The translations under genes and the position numbers were made by a program. DNA of 37,257 nt from a virus (Duplodnaviria > Heunggongvirae > Uroviricota > Caudoviricetes). Location: the IMG/VR virus record IMGVR_UViG_2917849834_000002; one strand, written 5' to 3'. The notes below the pieces were generated by a model, which ran no database searches, had not been told where the DNA came from, and saw nothing but the letters and a program-made list of their open reading frames with translations. Positions 994-11,176 of this stretch are shown here, one piece after another. Every line of letters starts with the position of its first letter. Positions within the stretch are counted from its first letter, which is position 1.

Positions 994-1161
994 TACGTAT
1001 CCTTATACCTGAAATCATCGCAAGTATGCCTGGCCGCGAGATTATGGCACACTTGTCCGGTTAACTCTCGTTCTCATACAGGTACCACAAACGTGAAAAT
1101 CCTTGTTGATGAAAAAAGTGATGATTTAATTTATTGATATAAAAGGATTTGTATCAGCGTA

Positions 1162-1179
1162 TGTCCACGCAGTGACCAC
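1162..1179. repeat. Left copy of boundary repeat TGTCCACGCAGTGACCAC; candidate Int arm-type sites or att core
   Basis: 17/18 identical to 37230..37247; reverse complement holds two GTGGNCA units spaced about 11 bp, resembling the P2 Int arm-site consensus as I recall it. Confidence 0.5.
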
Positions 1180-1197
1180 ATTTTCGAGAGGTAGAGC

Positions 1198-1219
1198 AAG
1201 CCCGCAACATTGCGGGCTT
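1198..1219 (+). terminator. GC-rich hairpin (9-bp stem AAGCCCGCA / TGCGGGCTT) followed by TGTCTTAT
   Basis: Perfect inverted repeat just downstream of the methylase stop; T-rich tail only on the plus strand. Confidence 0.4.
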
Positions 1220-1223
1220 TGTC

Positions 1224-2015
1224 TTATGGTTCGATCGCCGTTTTGAGCCGTTGTGTTGCTACATCAAAATAATGATCACTGGTTTCTATACCAATAAATT
1301 TGCGTCCTGCTTTCAGTGCAGCCACACCCGTTGTCCCTGACCCCATAAAAGGATCAAGGACTGTTCCGCCACTATTCACAGTCCTGACCAGTTCCGCCAT
1401 TAGTTCTTCTGGTTTTCCGGTCGGGTGCATTTTCTTTGACGGGATAACCGGGTACGTCATGCAGCCGTCGAACGGTCCCGAAGGTGATTTATCTAAATGG
1501 CCTTTGCTGCCCCAGACGATGTATTCGCACTGGTGCCGGAAATACCCGGTATGTGGTGTTCGTGACCCCCTCCCTTTGTTCCACGCAATGATGCCGCGCC
1601 ATGTAAAGCCACTGGCCTGAAACGCATCGGTTAAAGCTGGTAGTTGTCGCCAGTCAGTAAATACCAGGGCATAACCGCCCGGCCTGACTGCGCGGTGTGC
1701 CTGTGCCATCCATAATTGTGTCCAGTAAGCCCACGAACGGGCGTCCATGTTTTCACCCGCGAACCCATCAAAGCGGTGAAGGTTCTCGCCGTTCAGATAT
1801 TTTGCATGGCTGCCCTGGTTGGTGCGTCCGGCCTTGTGTGTCGCACCCGAACTGTAAGGCGGGTCAGTAATTAAGGCATCAATGCTTTCTGGCTCAATCA
1901 GCGGCAATATTTCCAGCGCATTTCCACGACAGAGCGTGGCATTGTCAGTCTGGTAAATCTTAGTGTGTTCCGGTGTATGTACTGGCTGGTGCTGGATTGC
2001 GATCCCCACGGTCAT
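1224..2015 (-). CDS. DNA methyltransferase (N6-adenine or N4-cytosine, beta class)
   Basis: 263 aa; DPPY catalytic motif (ITDPPYSSG) N-terminal to the AdoMet motif DPFMGSGTTGVAA; 5' end overlapped by the com-like ORF. Confidence 0.85.
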   Translation of the reverse strand: MTVGIAIQHQPVHTPEHTKIYQTDNATLCRGNALEILPLIEPESIDALITDPPYSSGATHKAGRTNQGSHAKYLNGENLHRFDGFAGENMDARSWAYWTQLWMAQAHRAVRPGGYALVFTDWRQLPALTDAFQASGFTWRGIIAWNKGRGSRTPHTGYFRHQCEYIVWGSKGHLDKSPSGPFDGCMTYPVIPSKKMHPTGKPEELMAELVRTVNSGGTVLDPFMGSGTTGVAALKAGRKFIGIETSDHYFDVATQRLKTAIEP

Positions 2016-2157
2016 AACTCCTCATGCGTGTGGGGTGCTCAATGGCTCTCGTTATCTGGTTAAGTGTTTTGCAGCGCGGACATTTTATTTCAATGTAGAG
2101 AAATGAGGCGCGGGCAAGTAGTTTGTTGCAATTTTTGCATCGTACATTTTGCGTCAT
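1960..2157 (-). CDS. com: Com-like zinc-finger translational regulator
   Basis: MTQNVRCKNCNKLL...IEIKCPRCK matches the Mu Com pattern (CxxC...CxxC); ATG at 2157 with SD GAGGTG 6 nt upstream; overlaps the methylase start as com overlaps mom in Mu. Confidence 0.75.
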   Translation of the reverse strand: MTQNVRCKNCNKLLARASFLYIEIKCPRCKTLNQITRAIEHPTRMRSYDRGDRNPAPASTYTGTH

Positions 2158-2284
2158 TTGCGGCACCTCTTGTGTGGTTACTGCTGCCGATATGATAGCA
2201 AATCGATCGTTTTTATCGATCGGATTTATTGCATCGATCTGTTATGCCTATTGCTTATGGGTGGTGCCCTCATTTGTGAGGACA

Positions 2285-2321
2285 CCAAAAAGAAAACCCG
2301 CAGTTTTTACGGTGCGGGTTT
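2285..2321 (-). terminator. Intrinsic terminator, probable 3' end of the hok-like mRNA
   Basis: 9-bp stem AAACCCGCA / TGCGGGTTT followed on the minus strand by UUUUCUUUUU. Confidence 0.5.
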
Positions 2322-2407
2322 GTTGTTCATGTCTGTCTGATAGGGTGCCTTATCGACCTTACCCTGGCAACCGATTGACGGGGGATTGCTCCCCCGTCGC
2401 GGTTTCC

Positions 2408-2548
2408 TTACTGCTTACACTGTAAGATCGCCGCAAACTCCGCTCCCCAGAAGCTCATCCGTATTTCACACAGCGAACCGTGTAGCATCCAGATGATGAG
2501 GATTGCCGTCACGCAGAACGTGATGGCTATAAGCGATTTTTGCGACAT
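2408..2548 (-). CDS. hok: Hok/Gef-family type I toxin (46 aa)
   Basis: Not in the ORF track (under 60 aa). Translation MSQKSLIAITFCVTAILIIWMLHGSLCEIRMSFWGAEFAAILQCKQ: one TM helix plus the conserved SLCEIR motif; SD AAGGAG 8 nt upstream. Confidence 0.7.
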   Translation of the reverse strand: MSQKSLIAITFCVTAILIIWMLHGSLCEIRMSFWGAEFAAILQCKQ

Positions 2549-2815
2549 AGCACTTGCTCCTTTTTTTGCAAAGGCGCTAAGCTCTTGCCCGCTTATTGAT
2601 TACGTTGTGAAACGCCCAGAGTTGAACATAAGGTTTAGTTGGGCCTTTTTACATCTGGCCTTCGTGTTTGCTGTCCAGCCATCAGTCGAAAGGTGTCCGC
2701 GTGAATTCTAGCCTGCTTTTTTTTCTTGCTTCAATACGTTGACTAATTTCAACACTCTGTTGTGCATATCCTGAACGCAGACATTATTCAGTCACGCATT
2801 TGATACATGCTTCCG

Positions 2816-2837
2816 CCGGCGTTCGCGCCGGTTTTTT
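2816..2837 (+). terminator. Intrinsic terminator with UUCG tetraloop; candidate 3' end of a Sok-like antisense RNA
   Basis: CCGGCG-TTCG-CGCCGG followed by TTTTTT on the plus strand, antisense to the expected hok mRNA leader. Confidence 0.45.
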
Positions 2838-3310
2838 GTCCTGTTGCTGCGTAGATCGTCATGTGCGATCGAGGCGCGGTATTGATCCTTTTTTCAGTTT
2901 AATTCTGGCTCTTGATTTTACGCAGGCCGCGCCGCGTCTGGCTTCTTTGTTTGATGGTTGTTTGATGCGATCCTTTAGTGATCGTTTTTCGTCTCGCGTA
3001 AAGCATGAAAACTCTTTTAATATCATGCTGTTTTATTGCTCCTGTCATTTGCGTGATCGTAAAAACCTCTCTGAAAACTGAAAAAAATTTCAAAGCGTGA
3101 AATTTCAGATCTTCGCTTTTCCCTCAGTTACTGCGCGGGCTGGCGGTCATTTTTGCACGGCAGAAAACTGAAAAAGTGTTTCGACACAAAACCCGCGGGT
3201 TGGAGGGGGTAGCGCGGTTTACGTCACCTCACGCTTTACGTCACACCGTTTACGCGGTATGTGCATACAGCGCCAGAATGGTATGCAGAACGCATTAATC
3301 AGGTGGTGGA

Positions 3311-3340
3311 TATGAAAACGCACGGTCGAAGCCGTGCGTT
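3311..3340 (-). terminator. Probable terminator of the late tail operon
   Basis: 9-bp stem AACGCACGG / CCGTGCGTT about 40 nt downstream of the last tail-operon stop, followed on the minus strand by UUUUCAU. Confidence 0.5.
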
Positions 3341-3378
3341 GTGTGGTGGGGCGTTTATGTGGCTTTTATGTCGGGTTA

Positions 3379-5076
3379 TCAGGCGATAAGGTCGCCGTAT
3401 TTTTCACGCAGACTCGTGGCCTGTTGGGCATCTGCGGCAAGTTCGCCGCTGTTCATCGGTGCGCCAGTGTTGCTGTGGGTGTGGTTTGCTGTATGTGTGG
3501 CCAGCAATTGAATCAGGTCCAGAATATCAGTCAGCAACGTCAGCAGGTTAAGCCCGGACTTTTCCCGCGAGCCGCTGCGACCAATAAACACTGTCGGGGC
3601 GGTAAACTCCAGACCGCCGTCCGCCCTGCATGTTCTGCGGCCTCCCACGTTTTCAGTCAGGTCGTGCTCAATCGTTGACGTTGCGCCTTTAAGTTTAGTC
3701 AGCAAATCCTGCGCCACCATCTGGATGTGTTCGCCGGCTGCGATCGCGTAATTGCCGGTAGTAAGGTGTTCTGTCTGGCCTGTCATCAGCTTGCTGGTAC
3801 CAAGAACACTGGTTATGTCGTTTGCCTGGACTGTTGTTGTTCTGGTTGTTGTTGTGCGTTCTTCCTGGTCGCTGTTAATGGTTCGCCTGGCAGAATGCTC
3901 CCTGATTTGCTGGTCGGTTTCCCTGTGCCAGCTTCCGTCAGTCGTGACACGCTGAAACACTTCTGCGCGCTGTTGCTGCAACTGTTCGCCGGGCTTTACA
4001 TCAGGCAGGTTATGTCCGGCAGGTAAGATTTGCCTGATGACAGGTTTATCCGGGCGGCCTTCAATACTGGATATTTCCACGATGGTGCCTGCCGGTGGGT
4101 AGGCAAAACATCCCGCCTCGCTACCAGCCATCGGGACAGGGAGCGGTACTGCCGGGTAAACAGGCGTATCGCTTTTGTCGTTGCCGTTCTCATCAAGCAG
4201 CTGCACGTCCACGGCGTAGCGTGGGCGGAAACTGTCGGCTACATCGCCCAGGGTGGCGGATTCCGTTGGTGCGACGACCCGCGCCAGTCTGGTGTGTAGT
4301 GTACCGCTGGCCAGTTCCGGAAACTGCGTTTCCATCTGTCTGCGCAATGGTGATTTGGAAACAGGGCTACCCGTGGCGGTGAGGCGCTCCCATGTCAGTG
4401 TCATTTTCTCGTTGTTGAGGGCTACACGGGTAATACGCCCGGCCGGAAGATTCACACCCGGCCGCACGGTTTCCATGAACATGATGTCGATGCTGTTTCC
4501 GCCGCTTTGCCCGAGTGTGTACTGTTGCGGAATATCGGGCATGGTAATGCTGGCAAACCGTGAATCAGCTGCGTTTCCCACAAATACAGAACCGTCCGGC
4601 ATGGGGTGCCAGACGTAATCGCTGATACTGAATGAGCGCCCCAGCTGGCTGAGTAACTGCGTCCCGCTGCCGCTGTGGGTGATGTAGGGAGTTGGTGTGC
4701 TGACATAATCCGCATCTGGCGTGATAAAAACGATACCGCTTTGTCGCCCCAGATTATCGAGCACATCCCGCAACGTCGGGTGTTGCATGGAGCAGGGGAA
4801 ATCAAAATCCAGCACAGCAGCTGCTTCACGGATAAAAAGGCGACGTGAGCCATTTTCGGCCGGTTGATCGCGTTCTATGTAGCCAGAGAAATAGCGCCAG
4901 GCCTCACCATTACGGCCGAGATCGATTTGCACCATTGCGCCGGCAAGGCTTTTTTCTGGTGACAGATTGTTAACAGAAACGAAGCCGCGACCGGCAGCAT
5001 TCAGGGTGAGAGCAAGGCTGATATCGGCAATTTCCACCTGTTCGCCATTGATCATGCAGCGTTGTATCAATTTCAT
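3379..5076 (-). CDS. Putative tail/baseplate hub protein (possibly gpD-like) with long C-terminal extension
   Basis: 565 aa, last gene of the late operon, ATGA-coupled to the upstream gene; N-terminal LALTLNAAGRGF and HPTLRDVLDNLG resemble gpD/Mu gp44 motifs from memory. Family assignment is weak. Confidence 0.35.
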   Translation of the reverse strand: MKLIQRCMINGEQVEIADISLALTLNAAGRGFVSVNNLSPEKSLAGAMVQIDLGRNGEAWRYFSGYIERDQPAENGSRRLFIREAAAVLDFDFPCSMQHPTLRDVLDNLGRQSGIVFITPDADYVSTPTPYITHSGSGTQLLSQLGRSFSISDYVWHPMPDGSVFVGNAADSRFASITMPDIPQQYTLGQSGGNSIDIMFMETVRPGVNLPAGRITRVALNNEKMTLTWERLTATGSPVSKSPLRRQMETQFPELASGTLHTRLARVVAPTESATLGDVADSFRPRYAVDVQLLDENGNDKSDTPVYPAVPLPVPMAGSEAGCFAYPPAGTIVEISSIEGRPDKPVIRQILPAGHNLPDVKPGEQLQQQRAEVFQRVTTDGSWHRETDQQIREHSARRTINSDQEERTTTTRTTTVQANDITSVLGTSKLMTGQTEHLTTGNYAIAAGEHIQMVAQDLLTKLKGATSTIEHDLTENVGGRRTCRADGGLEFTAPTVFIGRSGSREKSGLNLLTLLTDILDLIQLLATHTANHTHSNTGAPMNSGELAADAQQATSLREKYGDLIA

Positions 5077-5648
5077 GTTTTCCCTTCCTCTTTCGCGCTT
5101 CCGATGCCAACAGCATCCAGACCAGAGCCAACGGCATCATTGATTTTTTTCCAGAATGAACTTTGCGTATTCATGCCTTTGTCTGGCACCTGTTCGCTGC
5201 CGTTCTGTGTTTGCTGTTTTGCAATTGTTTTCTGTGAGCCGCTACGTGCAGATGCTTTCTCTGGTACGCTTAATTTTTCTCTGAGGGTAAAGGTGACCTG
5301 CCAGTGCATCTTGCCCTGTTGTTCCGTGGCATCGATGCCGCCGGAAAAAACACCCTGTCGCATATTAATCGCCTTAGCGGTAGCGTTGGCGATGCGGTAT
5401 GTTTTTTTGGCCCCGTTACCTTCAGTTGCTTCGGCAAGCTGAAAAATACGGGTCAGAATGGCCTCATCGTTAAAATCAATGACACCTGACACGCGCAGTT
5501 CTTTTGCCTTGTTTCCCTGCTGAGCGCTTGTGGTGCTGGTTGACTGCCCGGACATGTCTTTATCCGGTAGTTGCATGGTGGCACTGACGGTGATGTTGCG
5601 CAGCAGAATGGCCTCTCCGTCAAGCGCAAGAACAATTATCTGGGTCAT
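5073..5648 (-). CDS. Hypothetical late-operon protein, probably tail-associated
   Basis: 191 aa; SD AAGGGAAG upstream; stop overlaps the next start (ATGA). No recognisable motif. Confidence 0.3.
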   Translation of the reverse strand: MTQIIVLALDGEAILLRNITVSATMQLPDKDMSGQSTSTTSAQQGNKAKELRVSGVIDFNDEAILTRIFQLAEATEGNGAKKTYRIANATAKAINMRQGVFSGGIDATEQQGKMHWQVTFTLREKLSVPEKASARSGSQKTIAKQQTQNGSEQVPDKGMNTQSSFWKKINDAVGSGLDAVGIGSAKEEGKT

Positions 5649-6333
5649 GTAGTGCTTCCCTTAGTGATGAGAGTTCATCGCCGACAAACAGCATCACGGC
5701 GGTAAAAACCCACTCCGGGTGTGGAATGTTTTTTTGTATCAGTGCCGCAGTCTGATTAAGTGTTCCCTTGTTGCAAAAACGCCACACCGGACAGAATTGT
5801 TGTCTGAGTGCTGTCTCTCGCCCGGCAATTTCCTGCAAAATTTTATCTCTCGCTTCCCTGAACTGATGAAGTGACGATGACAATGTTTCCGGTGATGTGG
5901 CTGCTGGGGTGGCTGCCTGCGCAATGGTTGCCGCCAGTGTCATGCCACGGGTTGTCTGTGTTGACAGCGTTATCGGCTCCGGAAGTGATGTTGCCGGCCT
6001 GGCGGGGAGTTGCATTCTGCTGATGGCCAGCGAAAGCTGGCTGGAGATCATGCGGGACATTCGCCCCACCTCCGGCAACGGAAATGCACCTGAAAATTGC
6101 CTGGCGAGTGATAAAAATTCGTCAGCGGACGGGGCGCAGAGTAACAGCGCCACAACGTCCTTTTCTGTGCTTTCTGTCAGGTACGGTAAAAGTGCGGATA
6201 CCGCATTGTCCGGACTGAGATAACGCCCGGATGGTGTAATGTTTCCCGTATTTTCTGACCACGGATGAAGGCAGACCACTGAACAGCTGATGTTCATGGC
6301 TGCCGGGCGCAGAATGGCCTTTTCCCATTTCAT
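5620..6333 (-). CDS. Hypothetical late-operon protein, probably tail-associated
   Basis: 237 aa; start overlaps the stop of the upstream fibre chaperone (ATGA). No recognisable motif. Confidence 0.3.
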   Translation of the reverse strand: MKWEKAILRPAAMNISCSVVCLHPWSENTGNITPSGRYLSPDNAVSALLPYLTESTEKDVVALLLCAPSADEFLSLARQFSGAFPLPEVGRMSRMISSQLSLAISRMQLPARPATSLPEPITLSTQTTRGMTLAATIAQAATPAATSPETLSSSLHQFREARDKILQEIAGRETALRQQFCPVWRFCNKGTLNQTAALIQKNIPHPEWVFTAVMLFVGDELSSLREALHDPDNCSCA

Positions 6334-6902
6334 TCTGCCTTGCCCACCTGAAATGCGCGAATTTCTGCGAGATTATTCAGTTTAGTCAGTGTGTTTTTCA
6401 TCTCCCGCTGGCGCAGATAAATCTCATTGTTGCGGGTAACCTGTGCCTGAACCATTGCCGTCAGCAGTTCGTCCAGTTGCTGCACGGAGAGTTTCACCTG
6501 GCGGTTGTTCGCGTCGTTCCATGTCATAACGCTTCGTGCCGTGTCAGATTTTGCCAGCATCACCACCGGAGACAATCTGTCCACTGAAACAGGGCCGGCA
6601 TCCCAGATTCGCTTTTTCCATTCGAATGTGAACGACCGCGCTTCCTGTTCTGTGCGCCATGCTTCAATTTCCCGACGCTTGGCTGTTTTTGCTGCTTCCA
6701 GTATTTCCGGTGTCACAGTGAACGGAGCTATCTCCCCCCATTTACCGCTTTGCAGTTCCTGCCAGATTTTCTGGCCTGTTGGCGCCGTATCATCTGCCGT
6801 CGCTGTATACGGCAGTGCTTCGCCCATTCCCTCGAGCAGTACGTCACAGTCAATTGCACCACTTTCGATATAACGGGCGTTTTCGATTTTTTTTATTTTC
6901 AT
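6330..6902 (-). CDS. Tail fibre assembly chaperone (set 2)
   Basis: 190 aa immediately downstream of fibre 2; size and position typical of Tfa/gpG/Mu U chaperones. Confidence 0.55.
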   Translation of the reverse strand: MKIKKIENARYIESGAIDCDVLLEGMGEALPYTATADDTAPTGQKIWQELQSGKWGEIAPFTVTPEILEAAKTAKRREIEAWRTEQEARSFTFEWKKRIWDAGPVSVDRLSPVVMLAKSDTARSVMTWNDANNRQVKLSVQQLDELLTAMVQAQVTRNNEIYLRQREMKNTLTKLNNLAEIRAFQVGKAE

Positions 6903-6909
6903 AAATCAC

Positions 6910-8958
6910 CTATGCTGTACGTATAAACAAACCAATCATGACACCGAACGTATCAGCCGATCCCATCATGTCGCCAGACAATGCCCGGTACGTTCCCGGC
7001 AAACCTGCTCCTGAATCACGAAAATAAGCAGATACGTTGCCGTCGTATACGCCGGCCACGTTACTGGTGAAATGGCCCTTAAATTCAACCGCGCTAAGAC
7101 GCGAGCCAGGGTAATAATAACCCCGCATTATCCGGCGATTCTGGTCTGAAGAGTCACTTCCTCTGTATGCGGCCAGCACCAGACTGCCTGTGCCGTACCA
7201 GGCGTCTGTGGCTCCCGGAGCAATGCCTGACAGAAGATCGATAACGTTCTGAGTGGTAAATTTCAGTGATTCCCAGCCGATGAGATAGCCATTTCCACTT
7301 GTCCAGTAGCGGTTGTGATAAATATTGCCGTTAATGCCATAGAAAGTAATGACCTTTACTGTATGACGCGGGTTCGGCACTCCATACTCTGACTCAACCC
7401 AGCGAATACGAACCATTCCTTTGAACAGCACGTCCGGTATAATTTTATTGCTGCCGTCAACAAGATATTCTCCCGGTTCTGCCTTCCTTACCCACGCAAG
7501 AAAATCATTTTCTGAGTTAAACCTGATGACCTCGTCAGGGAGAAAGATATGACCAAAGCCGAACGCGCCAGGTATAGCCAGGCGGTCTGCCGTGCGGTCA
7601 TGAATGTCACCCTGCGGCTCCAGTGTGGCAGCTTTTCCAAGCTCAAGGATCGTGTGCATGTCTGCCAGTGTTTCCTGCATCAGCAGAGTGCGCGCCATTT
7701 CTGACAGTGTGGAAAGCGAAGCATTCCCTTCCGTATCAAAGCACAATAATTTGTCTGCCCGCGCTTTCAAATTGCTGATGGCGGTTAACACGTCACTGAG
7801 AGGTTGCTTGCCTGCCAGCGCGTTGGTGACTGTTGTTGCAAAGTTCGGGTCATTGCCCAGCGCCGCCGCCAGTTCGTTCAGCGTGTCCAGGGCTTCGGGA
7901 GATGAATCCACCAGTGCAGCGAGCAGTTTGCGGACAAACGCCGCATTTGCGATTTCTGTCCCCGTGGCATCATCAGGCGGTGTCGGGGTTTTCGGAGCGC
8001 CGGTAAAGACCGGACTGTACAGGGTGGCTCTGGCGTTGATTAACGTTAAGAAGTACGCCTCATTTGTCTTCAGGTTATCCCAGCCAGTCAGATAACCACC
8101 GCTGAGAGGCCAGTAACGGTTGTAATAAACATCTCCGTTAACGGTGTATAAAATAATGGCTTTTGCCATATGTTGCGGTTCTGGTGGATTGCGGTTCGCC
8201 TCCAGAAACCGGATATTAATTACACCACAGTAGCCACCGGGTAACACACCATTGGCCCCCTGTACAGAATACTCTCCGGGCGTTGCCTGCTTGACCCATG
8301 CTAGGAGGTCTTTTTCTGTATCAAACCGGATAAGCTCGCCTGGCAGAAACATGTGACCAAAACCAAATGCGCCCGGTATCGCCAGCCGGCCTTCCGTGCG
8401 GTCGTAAATATCACTCTGCGGCTCCATTGTGGCGGCATTTTTCAGTCCCAGATTATCACGGGATTCCTGTTGCGCCTCTTCACCTTCTGCCGCAATTTCT
8501 GACAGGTGGTTAGCCGTTTTCAGCATTGTTTTCAGTTCCGGATAAATATCCATCTGCCAGCTCTGTGGGGGAACCGTGATTTGTGCAGCCTGAGCCATAC
8601 CACTGTAAGTGATTGCAAAATTACGAAGAAGAGTTTCCCCCACATGTTTGTGGTGAACAGGAGTTTTTATTACACCGCATAGCGTGCCACTTGCCTGGTG
8701 AACAAGACAAATCCAGTCATAACTGAATTCGGCGTCTTCAGTGACTGCACCGCTACATACAATGCTGTTTGGGGTCAGTTGTCCGTAGGTGAGTTTGTTT
8801 ACGGTATAAGTAATTTTTTCCGGTGGAATAATATTATCTTCCGGGCTGGGGTCGCGATTCATTAGTGCAAATACGATGGCATCCGGCCGGGCAGGTAAAT
8901 TGCCGGCAATGCATTTTGCAATCCATTTTTCAAATGCTTTCGTTAATAATGCGCTCAT
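6910..8958 (-). CDS. Tail fibre protein 2 (mosaic, with internal duplication)
   Basis: 682 aa; N-terminus homologous to fibre 1; contains the P2 gpH-type motif ALDTLNELAAALGNDPNFATT; two diverged copies of a roughly 125-aa segment (aa ~177-300 and ~445-570). Confidence 0.8.
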   Translation of the reverse strand: MSALLTKAFEKWIAKCIAGNLPARPDAIVFALMNRDPSPEDNIIPPEKITYTVNKLTYGQLTPNSIVCSGAVTEDAEFSYDWICLVHQASGTLCGVIKTPVHHKHVGETLLRNFAITYSGMAQAAQITVPPQSWQMDIYPELKTMLKTANHLSEIAAEGEEAQQESRDNLGLKNAATMEPQSDIYDRTEGRLAIPGAFGFGHMFLPGELIRFDTEKDLLAWVKQATPGEYSVQGANGVLPGGYCGVINIRFLEANRNPPEPQHMAKAIILYTVNGDVYYNRYWPLSGGYLTGWDNLKTNEAYFLTLINARATLYSPVFTGAPKTPTPPDDATGTEIANAAFVRKLLAALVDSSPEALDTLNELAAALGNDPNFATTVTNALAGKQPLSDVLTAISNLKARADKLLCFDTEGNASLSTLSEMARTLLMQETLADMHTILELGKAATLEPQGDIHDRTADRLAIPGAFGFGHIFLPDEVIRFNSENDFLAWVRKAEPGEYLVDGSNKIIPDVLFKGMVRIRWVESEYGVPNPRHTVKVITFYGINGNIYHNRYWTSGNGYLIGWESLKFTTQNVIDLLSGIAPGATDAWYGTGSLVLAAYRGSDSSDQNRRIMRGYYYPGSRLSAVEFKGHFTSNVAGVYDGNVSAYFRDSGAGLPGTYRALSGDMMGSADTFGVMIGLFIRTA

Positions 8959-9515
8959 TATTCTTTATTCTCATTAATAGTTTGCGACAGCTCCGGCCAC
9001 GCGATCGCGGCATACGCTGTTTTATCCGTAATCAGGCTAAAATCCATCACCTGCAATTCCTTTGCGTAAATACGATATGCTCTCAGCTTTTCTTTATCTT
9101 CGTCGCTGATTAACCCCAGCAACAGGTCTTTTTCCCAGTCAGCAGTTAACCGGCTTACATCCTTGAGCTTCCTCACTCGCTCATCTTCTGCCTTTTTACC
9201 GTAATCAAATATGAATTTACCATCCCGGTAAAACCAGTAACCCGATATATCAATTCGTCGGTTAGCTGTGTTATCTGTCACTTCAATCACGCTCCTGTTT
9301 CTGGGGTTAATTGACGCAACATCTTTGCCAACCCAGGTAACTTTTCCTGTATCCAGATATTCGACTTTTAATGTGTCAGGTGAAAAATCTTTCTGAATCT
9401 CATACCAGTTTTCACCAGATTCTGCATACAACCACTCGACGCCATATCTTTTAGTTAACTCATATTGTTCGGCTGTTTTCGGATTGCCCGACGTAATATT
9501 TTTTAAGTGCAACAT
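8958..9515 (-). CDS. Tail fibre assembly chaperone (set 1)
   Basis: 185 aa directly after fibre 1 (TAATG overlap with the next start); Tfa-like size and composition. Confidence 0.65.
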   Translation of the reverse strand: MLHLKNITSGNPKTAEQYELTKRYGVEWLYAESGENWYEIQKDFSPDTLKVEYLDTGKVTWVGKDVASINPRNRSVIEVTDNTANRRIDISGYWFYRDGKFIFDYGKKAEDERVRKLKDVSRLTADWEKDLLLGLISDEDKEKLRAYRIYAKELQVMDFSLITDKTAYAAIAWPELSQTINENKE

Positions 9516-9517
9516 AA

Positions 9518-11176
9518 TTACATACTCGCTACGTTATACCAGGTTCCATTAATCAGTTTCTGAAGGGGGCGGATAAACCACCCGTCGGCAGAGTTATCCC
9601 AGTCTCCGTAGCAGTAGCCACCCACACTGACATAACCCGGGGGAGCCAGGTTTGAGCCTGTACTGCCCATCTGTTGATAACCGCCAAGACGCATATCCTG
9701 TACTCCCATTTTATTTTGCAGGTAAGATGACAGCCATCCTCCCCATGTGCTGCCGTACACGTTACCGTCAGCCGCAAGCCTTGCAGAGCCGTTGCCTGAC
9801 TGTAATTCACCTGTTGCGACACTATTTCCATGCACCAGTGAACCGCCACCGGTGGTCACTTTGTGTGACATGGCAATATCACCAGTCCGCAGGTTAATTG
9901 AGAAAGGACGCAGAGGGCCAATATTGCCATTTTCACCCTGTCCTTCCGTGGTGGGGATAAGATGAAGGCTGTCTTCTGAGCGACGAAAAATCAGACCAAA
10001 GGCGCCATCGAAAATCCTCAGCGCATTAACGTCACGAATTTTCAGTTCCCCGGTCATGGTATCGCCACCTCGCTGAACGGCGCCTTCTGCCTTATCAACG
10101 GTGGGCTTTAGTCCGACGTTTTCAATAAACAGTGGTTTGTCGGGGATGTCGCTGCCGTTGCGATTTTTCGCAAGGCGGGCATTTGCGTTATCCATTGCGA
10201 TTTTTACCGCTTTTGACGTGGCGGCACGGTCTTCTGCATCACTGTCAGTGGCGTTACTGTACTGAGCGAATCCTTTTTCGTTCAGTGTGGCATCCGGGTG
10301 CCTGCGGGATTTTTCGTGTTCTGCCAGTGCATTGCTTTGTTCTTCGTCGGGTGTCTCCGGACGTAAATCCTGTGAGCCGTCTGCTGTCAGTTTTGCAAGC
10401 GGTGCAACAAAATGCCGAAAGCCATTCCCGTCTGTGTAGGATGCATGTTCCGGGCGGGCGCTGAATGTGAAAACCGTATTCCATTCGCCAGTAACAAATC
10501 CCTGCCAGCTTGCATCAATCCAGATGGTGTCCCCGACCGTTGCGCGCAGGCTGTAAGGTTCGCGCAGACTGACGCGCAAACCTCCCACATAACCAATCCC
10601 CGCGGCAACAATGGCGGTGCCGTTCTGATAGCTCACCTGAAAACCGTCCTCCAGAAAAGCGGCTTCACCGTAGTGATCAAACGCCAGCAGTCTGCGGGCT
10701 TCATCCATTCCCGCCAGGCGGGCAGTGAAATCAATCTGCCAGACATCAGCACTGACATCGATATGCATCGCTGCTGCCGCACCGTCAAACTCCATGGAAA
10801 ACGTGCGGATCAGATTGTTTCCCTGTACACCGTTCGCGGTTTTAATTTTTTGCTGGCAGGGGGTGTGCGCAATCATACAGAGCACGCCGCTTTCTTCGTT
10901 CAGCAGGCCAATCCAGTTGTATTCGAAGTCGCCGATTGTGGTATCCAGAATGATGGAAAATGCGGTTGCATTCGGTGACAGGAGACCGTACTGGGTGACC
11001 GGTGCGCGATACTGGATCAGGGTTTCATCAGGGAGCGTTTCGTCGCGGGGGATCTCTGCAGACTCATCCAGTCCCGGAATATATGCAAAAACAAATGTAT
11101 CCGGGCGCGCAGGTTTCCCGCTGATGATCTGATTTGCGCACCAGTGTTCGTATTGTTCAGTAATAATCGTACTCAT
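9518..11176 (-). CDS. Tail fibre protein 1 (P2 gpH-like C-terminal two-thirds)
   Basis: 552 aa; AEHEKSRRHPDATLNEKGF and C-terminal KLINGTWYNV match P2 gpH motifs as I recall them; start overlaps the gpI-like stop. Confidence 0.85.
   Translation of the reverse strand: MSTIITEQYEHWCANQIISGKPARPDTFVFAYIPGLDESAEIPRDETLPDETLIQYRAPVTQYGLLSPNATAFSIILDTTIGDFEYNWIGLLNEESGVLCMIAHTPCQQKIKTANGVQGNNLIRTFSMEFDGAAAAMHIDVSADVWQIDFTARLAGMDEARRLLAFDHYGEAAFLEDGFQVSYQNGTAIVAAGIGYVGGLRVSLREPYSLRATVGDTIWIDASWQGFVTGEWNTVFTFSARPEHASYTDGNGFRHFVAPLAKLTADGSQDLRPETPDEEQSNALAEHEKSRRHPDATLNEKGFAQYSNATDSDAEDRAATSKAVKIAMDNANARLAKNRNGSDIPDKPLFIENVGLKPTVDKAEGAVQRGGDTMTGELKIRDVNALRIFDGAFGLIFRRSEDSLHLIPTTEGQGENGNIGPLRPFSINLRTGDIAMSHKVTTGGGSLVHGNSVATGELQSGNGSARLAADGNVYGSTWGGWLSSYLQNKMGVQDMRLGGYQQMGSTGSNLAPPGYVSVGGYCYGDWDNSADGWFIRPLQKLINGTWYNVASM

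Follow-up and report, generated by a model that had tools for sequence, protein, structure and literature searches.

In bacteriophage Mu, the zinc-ribbon protein Com (ribbon cysteines Cys 6, 9, 26 and 29; PMC3299994) binds a short hairpin located just 5′ of a translation inhibition structure, and the GUG start codon of mom lies within the stem of that structure (PMC6483171). SELEX (systematic evolution of ligands through exponential enrichment), together with selective 2′-hydroxyl acylation analysed by primer extension (SHAPE) and footprinting, defined the Com target: CC(N)2-3GAG, placed in the loop of a hairpin and belonging to a motif in two parts, NGAGNNCC(N)2-3GAGNNCCNN; in Mu itself the site reads GAAUGCCUGCGAGCAUCCC (PMC6483171). 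In both mom and agn43, OxyR represses the unmethylated sites and Dam methylation relieves the repression (PMC3378877, PMC2909390). A com homologue also precedes an adenine methyltransferase gene in FluMu (Hin1523), Pnm1 (Nma1821), the Hia5 locus of H. influenzae biotype aegyptius and Pseudomonas phage B3 (ORF47/48) (PMC3299994). The present analysis concerns a com–methylase pair in the IMG/VR virus record IMGVR_UViG_2917849834_000002, a stretch of 37,257 nucleotides (nt) that was analysed over its whole length and is referred to as the window. The window represents an E. coli prophage, a myovirus of the P2 family, with a P2-type capsid, terminase, portal, gpA-like replication protein, tail sheath and tape measure; an exact match at the protein level assigns it to Escherichia sp. 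E4702. The pair occupies the extreme left end of the prophage, whose integration site adjoins the host gene flk, and all relevant genes lie on the minus strand. The two genes probably form a late or accessory operon that would produce an orphan N6-adenine methylase only when Com is present.

A preliminary description of this locus had placed a Com-like open reading frame (ORF) across the 5′ end of a methylase gene. Both minus-strand ORFs are present at the stated coordinates, each is identified by protein profiles and their overlap is real; the observation is confirmed as written.

1960–2157, minus strand: com, encoding a 65-amino-acid (aa) CCCC zinc ribbon of the Com family, a predicted RNA-binding translational activator (NCBI protein WP_135488994).
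1224–2015, minus strand: predicted beta-class N6-adenine DNA methyltransferase gene, orphan, 263 aa from the annotated ATG 2015; probable start GTG 2009.

The Com protein matches Pfam PF10122 (Zn_ribbon_Com, Mu-like prophage protein Com) with E = 3.3e-12 and 46.1 bits against a cut-off of 22.9, as well as PHROG 13819 (‘gpCom control of modification’) at 1.6e-16, and has 60% identity with Mu Com across 42 aa. It consists of an N-terminal CxxC-N16-CxxC ribbon and a variable tail. Cysteines 7, 10, 27 and 30, corresponding to positions 6, 9, 26 and 29 of Mu Com, are invariant among 45 distinct homologues. The gene starts at ATG 2157, with the Shine-Dalgarno (SD) sequence GAGGTG 6 nt upstream; this start is credible because GTG 2166, from which a longer ORF would begin, falls inside the SD sequence. 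A hairpin in the 5′ untranslated region of com (CGGCA/UGCCG), considered as a device hiding the com SD, was dropped, as it folds no better than shuffled sequences (z = +0.88).

The methylase matches Pfam PF01555 (N6_N4_Mtase; 3e-33, 116.1 bits against a cut-off of 26.7) with no match to PF02086, and further matches PHROG 67 (2e-81) and the PADLOC Type II methyltransferase profile (3e-64). The enzyme belongs to the beta class because motif IV, DPPY (1854–1865, residues 51–54), precedes motif I, an FxGxG sequence read as FMGSG (1335–1349, residues 223–227). Among its relatives of solved structure (5hek, 6pbd and 1g60), the best are M.HpyAVI/DpnA-type enzymes and CcrM, at 25–30% identity, and the nearest non-enterobacterial phage relatives are Burkholderia phage enzymes at ~40% identity. 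A DPPY rather than an SPPY tetrapeptide favours adenine-N6 over cytosine-N4 as the target, and the top solved relatives are adenine enzymes, which together favour an N6-adenine type. NCBIfam offers no equivalog, its YhdJ, CcrM and PRK13699 matches all lying far below their cut-offs; with these distant matches and 25–30% identity to the solved relatives, the recognition sequence is not inferable.

The overlap between com and the methylase is 56 nt when counted from ATG 2015 and 50 nt from the conserved GTG 2009. In related cassettes, the downstream genes (Mom, a C5 methylase and the N6 orthologue of L116; comparison loci carry L numbers) all start at the GUG of GUGGGG. The SD sequence GGAG lies 8 nt from GUG 2009 and just 2 nt from AUG 2015, and initiation at the GUG gives a 50-nt overlap in frame +1, identical to that of Mu com/mom. 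The GUG usage of the cassette relatives, the SD spacing and the Mu-like overlap suggest that GTG 2009 is the functional start and that the annotated ATG 2015 is wrong, a likely refinement of the earlier reading.

The methylase start is preceded by, and embedded in, two RNA elements.

2034–2050, minus strand: predicted Com-binding RNA element GAGAGCC-AUU-GAGCACC, an exact match to the SELEX bipartite motif.
2004–2035, minus strand: hairpin like the Mu translation inhibition structure, outer stem CCCCAC (2035–2030)/GUGGGG (2009–2004).
2026–2022 paired with 2017–2013, minus strand: inner stem of the same hairpin, CAUGA/UUAUG, with the SD GGAG (2021–2018) in a four-base apical loop.

These elements agree with the com–mom-like translational control, with a methylase as target, that had been proposed for the pair: an exact and single Com RNA motif lies directly 5′ of the methylase start, it adjoins a start-hiding hairpin as in Mu, and the synonymous sites of com are frozen at this position. 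The pattern GAGNNCC-N3-GAGNNCC occurs once in the 37-kb window, against an expectation of 0.04. Among distinct Com loci, drawn from many phyla, 27 of 74 carry the bipartite motif at the 3′ end of com, against a single match in a background of 407 kb of flanking sequence. The predicted element would form a short hairpin with a GAGC/GCAC stem, interrupted by one A·A mismatch, and a CAUUGA loop. The search pattern leaves two pairs of the stem free; in 32 distinct variants these are canonical 22 and 31 times, with pair types switching among U-A, C-G, A-U, G-C and G·U.

The last two C residues of the Com motif are at the same time the first two bases of the CCCCAC arm. The start-hiding hairpin encloses the SD, AUG and GUG of the methylase, the annotated AUG being part of the UUAUG arm. 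It appears in both the minimum free energy (MFE) and the centroid folds, and the 51-nt segment has a z-score of −2.47, with 5 of 200 shuffles equally stable. The Mu sequence folds alike (CCCAC/GUGGG), and the same outer stem is found in 35 of 35 distinct enterobacterial cassette variants in addition to Mu. A scan of positions 1000–3500 against Rfam at E ≤ 1 matched no family, so that no curated model covers the Com target or the hairpin.

The coding constraint was compared across 45 distinct enterobacterial com genes. In the zinc ribbon, all 13 of 13 invariant residues vary synonymously, versus 1 of 5 in the RNA-target segment (Fisher p = 0.0016). The codons of Ala41 (GCC), Glu43 (GAG), Pro45 (CCC) and Gly54 (GGG), which form the Com motif and the hairpin arms, are invariant. 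Despite the kinship of the genes, the direction is clear, with the freezing of synonymous sites apparently confined to the RNA-target segment of com.

The hairpin (2035–2004) lies upstream of the com stop codon at 1960, so that translation of com must unwind it. This geometry suits a reading based on translational coupling only, in which ribosomes translating com melt the hairpin in cis and Com is not needed as an RNA-binding activator; the mismatched stem of the Com hairpin in the clade of the window speaks in the same direction. Coupling alone, however, would not require conservation of the exact SELEX motif together with frozen synonymous sites. Moreover, Mu has the same geometry, and there Com binds the mom mRNA hairpin and activates translation (PMC6483171). 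Coupling as the whole explanation is distinctly unlikely.

The name assigned to the protein by the NCBI Prokaryotic Genome Annotation Pipeline (PGAP), ‘Com family DNA-binding transcriptional regulator’, implies yet another role, that of a DNA-binding transcription factor for the methylase or for other genes. Characterised Com binds the mom mRNA and not DNA (PMC6483171, PMC3378877), the cognate RNA motif is present in the window, and no repeated DNA operator is evident. A DNA-binding function is very improbable, and the analysis suggests that the product name is misleading.

Upstream of com, the parallel with Mu likely extends to the Dam/OxyR operator and stops short of the Mu C-dependent promoter, a second refinement of the preliminary description.

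2202–2251, minus strand: predicted OxyR-type operator that includes three GATC (Dam) sites, namely 2236–2239, 2218–2221 and 2205–2208.
2192–2219, minus strand: predicted sigma-70-like promoter, −35 TCGATA (2219–2214), 16-nt spacer, extended −10 TGcTATCAT (2200–2192).

The GATC sites are spaced 18/13 nt apart, as in the regulatory region of Mu mom (positions 660/678/691 of L003), compared with 19/13 in agn43, and a triplet of such geometry is expected 0.01 times per window. Against the OxyR consensus ATAGnTnnnAnCTAT-N7-ATAGnTnnnAnCTAT, the operator matches 15 of 20 specified positions. On the same scoring, the validated sites of Mu and agn43 reach 13 and 14; with both strands of the entire window scored, the six highest values all come from 2202–2251. 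In L116, whose Com is 67% identical, the three GATCs and the subsequent TATCAT are retained and the bases between them differ. The predicted promoter overlaps GATC sites 2 and 3 and has 9 of 12 matches in a consensus scan, with TG ahead of the −10; the block GATCGATTTGnTATCAT of this region is conserved in L116 and L113. A counterpart of the Mu C-dependent promoter (T-tract, TAAGAT) was not found, and the distance from the third GATC to the com ATG is 51 nt, versus 78 nt in Mu. Between 2160 and 2330 there is no Ogr-type TGT-N12-ACA dyad, the element of P2 late promoters centred near −55; the sole nearby match, at 2065–2082, lies inside com.

In some com cassettes that carry Mom or a C5 methylase (L147, L148, L152 and L153, ~1430–1470), the operator reads CGATCGTTTTTATCGATCGATAAG, from which the agn43 operator (L081, 236–259), CGATCGTTTATATCGATCGATAAG, differs at 2 of 24 positions. 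As agn43 resides within the cryptic prophage CP4-44, the two operators possibly share a phage origin.

The operator invites a reading in which the pair is a phase-variable module expressed in lysogens, with Dam/OxyR competition as in agn43, a heritable ON/OFF state and chromosome methylation in a subpopulation of cells. The outcome could be heterogeneous gene expression, or phage and host DNA that are methylated in advance. The operator scores at least as high as that of agn43 and overlaps the −35, the sister-cassette operators are almost identical to that of agn43, and both the Mu C-dependent segment and an Ogr-type dyad are missing upstream of com. Set against this, the prophage methylases M.EcoGI/GII and M.EcoMIV/MV are silent in lysogens in methylome studies (PMC5778455, PMC4659465), phase variation is not established even for Mu mom (PMC2909390), and the promoter involved is a consensus match only. 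The extra Com gate suggests, in addition, tight repression of a potentially harmful enzyme. Phase variation and translational coupling are the main alternatives to a Com-gated operon; phase variation is the more interesting of the two, and it is doubtful.

In the proposed mechanism of the Com-gated operon, which is modelled on Mu com/mom and agn43 by homology for its binding events, promoter, timing of expression and the activity and specificity of the enzyme, transcription would begin at a sigma-70-like promoter embedded in the OxyR-type operator with its three Dam sites. OxyR should occlude this promoter, and so repress the operon, when the GATCs are unmethylated or hemimethylated, and Dam methylation should exclude OxyR and bring relief. 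The com gene would then be translated from its own SD, with the SD and the starts of the methylase (GUG 2009, and AUG 2015 just upstream) hidden in the hairpin inside the com frame. Binding of Com to the adjacent GAGNNCC-N3-GAGNNCC would open the hairpin and permit initiation. The methylase would finally mark adenines of the replicating phage DNA, and of host DNA, so that progeny could escape restriction in the next host.

Several points weigh against this mechanism. In the clade of the window, the second pair of the Com hairpin is the A·A mismatch, and the hairpin is absent from the predicted MFE fold. The z-score of the start-hiding hairpin is modest (−2.47), and its outer stem gives no covariation because it never varies. 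The hairpin arms are also coding, specifying EHPT in Com and, in the cargo, Val-Gly overlapping the Com Arg-Gly codons; dual coding or shared ancestry could be behind part of the conservation. The p-values are optimistic because the compared sequences are related and partly dual-coding. Translation of com carries ribosomes across the hairpin, which they might melt in the absence of Com. Both the promoter and the OxyR site are no more than matches to a consensus. The natural variants L113, L114 and L115 (com at 1501) keep the com–methylase pair without the operator: AATCA stands in place of the segment holding all three GATCs and the predicted −35, and the TATCAT −10 is retained. What the sequence comparison itself shows is the two genes and the motifs, together with how these are arranged and conserved.

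The likeliest role of the methylase is methylation of phage DNA against restriction, gated by Com and possibly by Dam/OxyR. The anti-restriction self-modification module envisaged earlier is consistent with the in silico results, which provide no restriction endonuclease partner. Anti-restriction methylation has been proposed for KS5 gp20 (PMC3091744) and shown for Hia5 and Hin1523 (PMC3299994). The top PADLOC match, a Type II methyltransferase profile, would also suit the modification half of a restriction–modification (R-M) or other prophage defence system. No endonuclease-like ORF lies beside the gene, however, its neighbours being com, a hok-like toxin gene and the host gene flk here or raiA in another strain. 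PADLOC returned methyltransferase profiles only; Com, the hok-like toxin and two small neighbouring ORFs were tested without a match. The absence of a linked endonuclease and the restriction of the PADLOC matches to methyltransferases mark the enzyme as an orphan. Membership of an R-M or defence system was rejected on the same grounds, and is scarcely credible.

Outside the window, annotations of the same pair, 95–98% identical, exist for phage Chuche and for 164 of the 5426 complete E. coli genomes, where PGAP labels it ‘Com family DNA-binding transcriptional regulator’ and ‘DNA-methyltransferase’, and the protein clusters of the pair span >1000 contigs. A scan for Com loci using one genome per species yielded 77 loci, ~45 of which have a DPPY methylase directly after com, often overlapping it. 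The pairing is recurrent and not a chance juxtaposition. Across the loci, the gene after com encodes Mom (PF25680), a beta-class methylase (PF01555), a D12 Dam-like methylase (PF02086) or a C5-cytosine methylase (PF00145). In the enterobacterial cassettes, three unrelated families, namely Mom, C5 methylase and N6 methylase, all begin with GUG-GGG.

Some of these cassettes are near-identical in com and its upstream region and differ in cargo: L118 carries a C5 methylase and L128 Mom, and L147 and L150 carry a C5 methylase and L144 Mom. The swapped genes start at 1655 and encode either a Mom homologue of 240–245 aa or a C5-cytosine methylase of 350 aa, with similarity stopping right after GUGGGGAAC. 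This pattern indicates repeated replacement of the cargo at the translation start. Because near-identical cassettes carry different cargo, the operator, com and the hairpin appear to behave as a portable regulatory unit. A more far-reaching proposal joins this unit to phase variation: a Dam/OxyR epigenetic switch would flip in lysogens with Com as a second, translational gate, giving E. coli a ‘phasevarion’ carried by a prophage, and enterobacterial P2-like phages would have recombined the portable cassette exactly at GUGGGG onto Mom, C5 or N6 enzymes. This proposal is speculative and on balance unlikely.

Com-like ribbons also occur in other settings. In Firmicutes (L033–L035, L049–L051, L055, L059, L066 and L070–L076), they lie just upstream of genes for proteins of >450 aa whose N-termini look like those of phage tape-measure proteins. 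In Saganbacteria/Margulisiibacteriota (L060, L061 and L067), a Com-like ORF overlaps by 31 nt a gene for a protein whose N-terminus looks like that of aspartyl-tRNA synthetase. Among these Firmicutes and candidate-phyla loci, the bipartite Com motif is present in one (L055). Com may regulate other kinds of genes in these groups.

The surroundings of the operon contain further features. Just past the methylase stop lies one of them, found in a terminator scan.

1198–1219: G+C-rich hairpin, a possible operon terminator.

Its terminator function is uncertain because the minus-strand U-tract is weak. Directly upstream of the com operon, hok (2408–2548, minus strand) encodes a 46-aa Hok/Gef-family type I toxin (NCBIfam HokA, 4.7e-07), with relatives annotated as Hok/Gef or MokW-like, structured flanks reaching to ~2720 and an intrinsic terminator at ~2320–2288. 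Together, hok, com and the methylase co-occur in phage Chuche and in E. coli H9Ecoli (NZ_CP029180) and STEC313. No ogr/delta-like gene was seen beside hok, at the position where Chuche and H9Ecoli carry one. A very stable 10-bp dyad, GGTGTCCTCA-CAAA-TGAGGGCACC (2263–2286, minus strand), separates the OxyR operator from the terminator of hok; it has a folding energy of −18.3 kcal/mol and z = −4.75, with no U-tract after it. Its compensatory changes comprise C-G in L083, U-A in L004 and U·G in the window, and L116 retains a dyad of another sequence. The dyad of the window may bind a protein, act as an insulator or belong to the 3′ end of the hok mRNA.

Farther upstream, a ~660-bp unannotated region (~2720–3380) separates hok from the baseplate gene. 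It has no match in the phage database; 50 of 5426 complete E. coli genomes match it, 41 of them holding at least 80% of it, and the E. coli copies are annotated as ‘hypothetical protein’ at most. A second GATC triplet, with spacing of 17 and 13, lies in this region at 2854–2887 and was set aside, its match to the OxyR consensus being just 10 of 20. The adjoining baseplate/tail-fibre module (3379–11176, minus strand) is unlike those of P2 and Chuche.

The pairing of Com with an adenine methylase is already published (B3, FluMu, Pnm1 and Hia5: PMC3299994; KS5: PMC3091744), and the pair is already labelled by PGAP and phage pipelines. The literature searched contains nothing specific on how Dam and OxyR might control a P2-like com–methylase operon or on its phase variation, on a promoter-overlapping Dam/OxyR operator retained in P2-like prophages, on the exact SELEX motif and hairpin in this element, or on cargo swapping at the GUG. 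The layered control that Mu applies to a potentially harmful DNA-modifying enzyme extends beyond Mom and beyond transposable phages. Its cassette, with the key RNA elements preserved base for base, recurs in common E. coli and Salmonella prophages ahead of three or more unrelated enzyme families. Com gating is one possible reason why such a prophage methylase could go unseen in the methylomes of lysogens. A functional Dam/OxyR operator would mean that one methylase sets the expression of another.

Compared with known systems, the enzyme resembles M.EcoGI and M.EcoGII, which are beta-class DPPY orphan adenine methylases of E. coli prophages that stay silent in the lysogenic state and whose presumed role is anti-restriction (PMC5778455). 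Those enzymes are non-specific and 349 aa long, versus 263 aa here, and their description mentions no Com (PMC5778455). Identity with either is unlikely, judged by length alone, and their non-specificity is not transferable. With agn43 (flu), the locus shares an OxyR-type site containing three GATCs, spaced 19/13 in agn43, and the core CGATCG-N7-CGATCGAT. The agn43 operator, however, follows the transcription start on its downstream side, as IsrC RNA is annotated to start at GATC-I, whereas here the operator overlaps the predicted −35.

In the Burkholderia P2-like phage KS5, gp21 (a Com translational regulator) overlaps gp20 (an N-4/N-6 DNA methylase, PF01555), as in the window (PMC3091744). 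The KS5 pair lies inside the tail gene cluster and not at a prophage end, and its description includes no Dam/OxyR operator (PMC3091744). The Mu-like prophages likewise have a methylase in the mom position, for which regulation by Com and an anti-restriction role have been proposed (PMC3299994). Their enzymes are alpha-class, Dam-like (PF02086) and non-specific (PMC3299994), in contrast to the beta-class enzyme of the window; the H. influenzae enzyme at L022 matches PF02086 and the methylase of the window PF01555 only. The com gene of Haemophilus is shorter, at 39 aa, and has no overlap with the methylase gene.

Mu com–mom differs from the locus in its cargo, which is Mom (PF25680) in Mu and an AdoMet-dependent (S-adenosylmethionine-dependent) beta-class adenine methylase (PF01555) here, and in its host element, a transposable phage in Mu and a P2-like integrating prophage here. 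The stem of the Com hairpin has an A·A mismatch in the window. Since ~38 nt of Pmom, comprising the C-dependent −10 and the T-tract, are absent, the operator overlaps the predicted promoter and does not lie upstream of it as in Mu. The two systems nevertheless share a Com protein at 60% identity and a 50-nt overlap of com with the downstream modification gene in the same relative frame. In both, a GUG start is enclosed in a CCCAC/GUGGG hairpin with a GA(G/A)NNCC-N3-GAGNNCC motif directly on its 5′ side, and an OxyR-type operator with three GATCs spaced 18/13 lies upstream.

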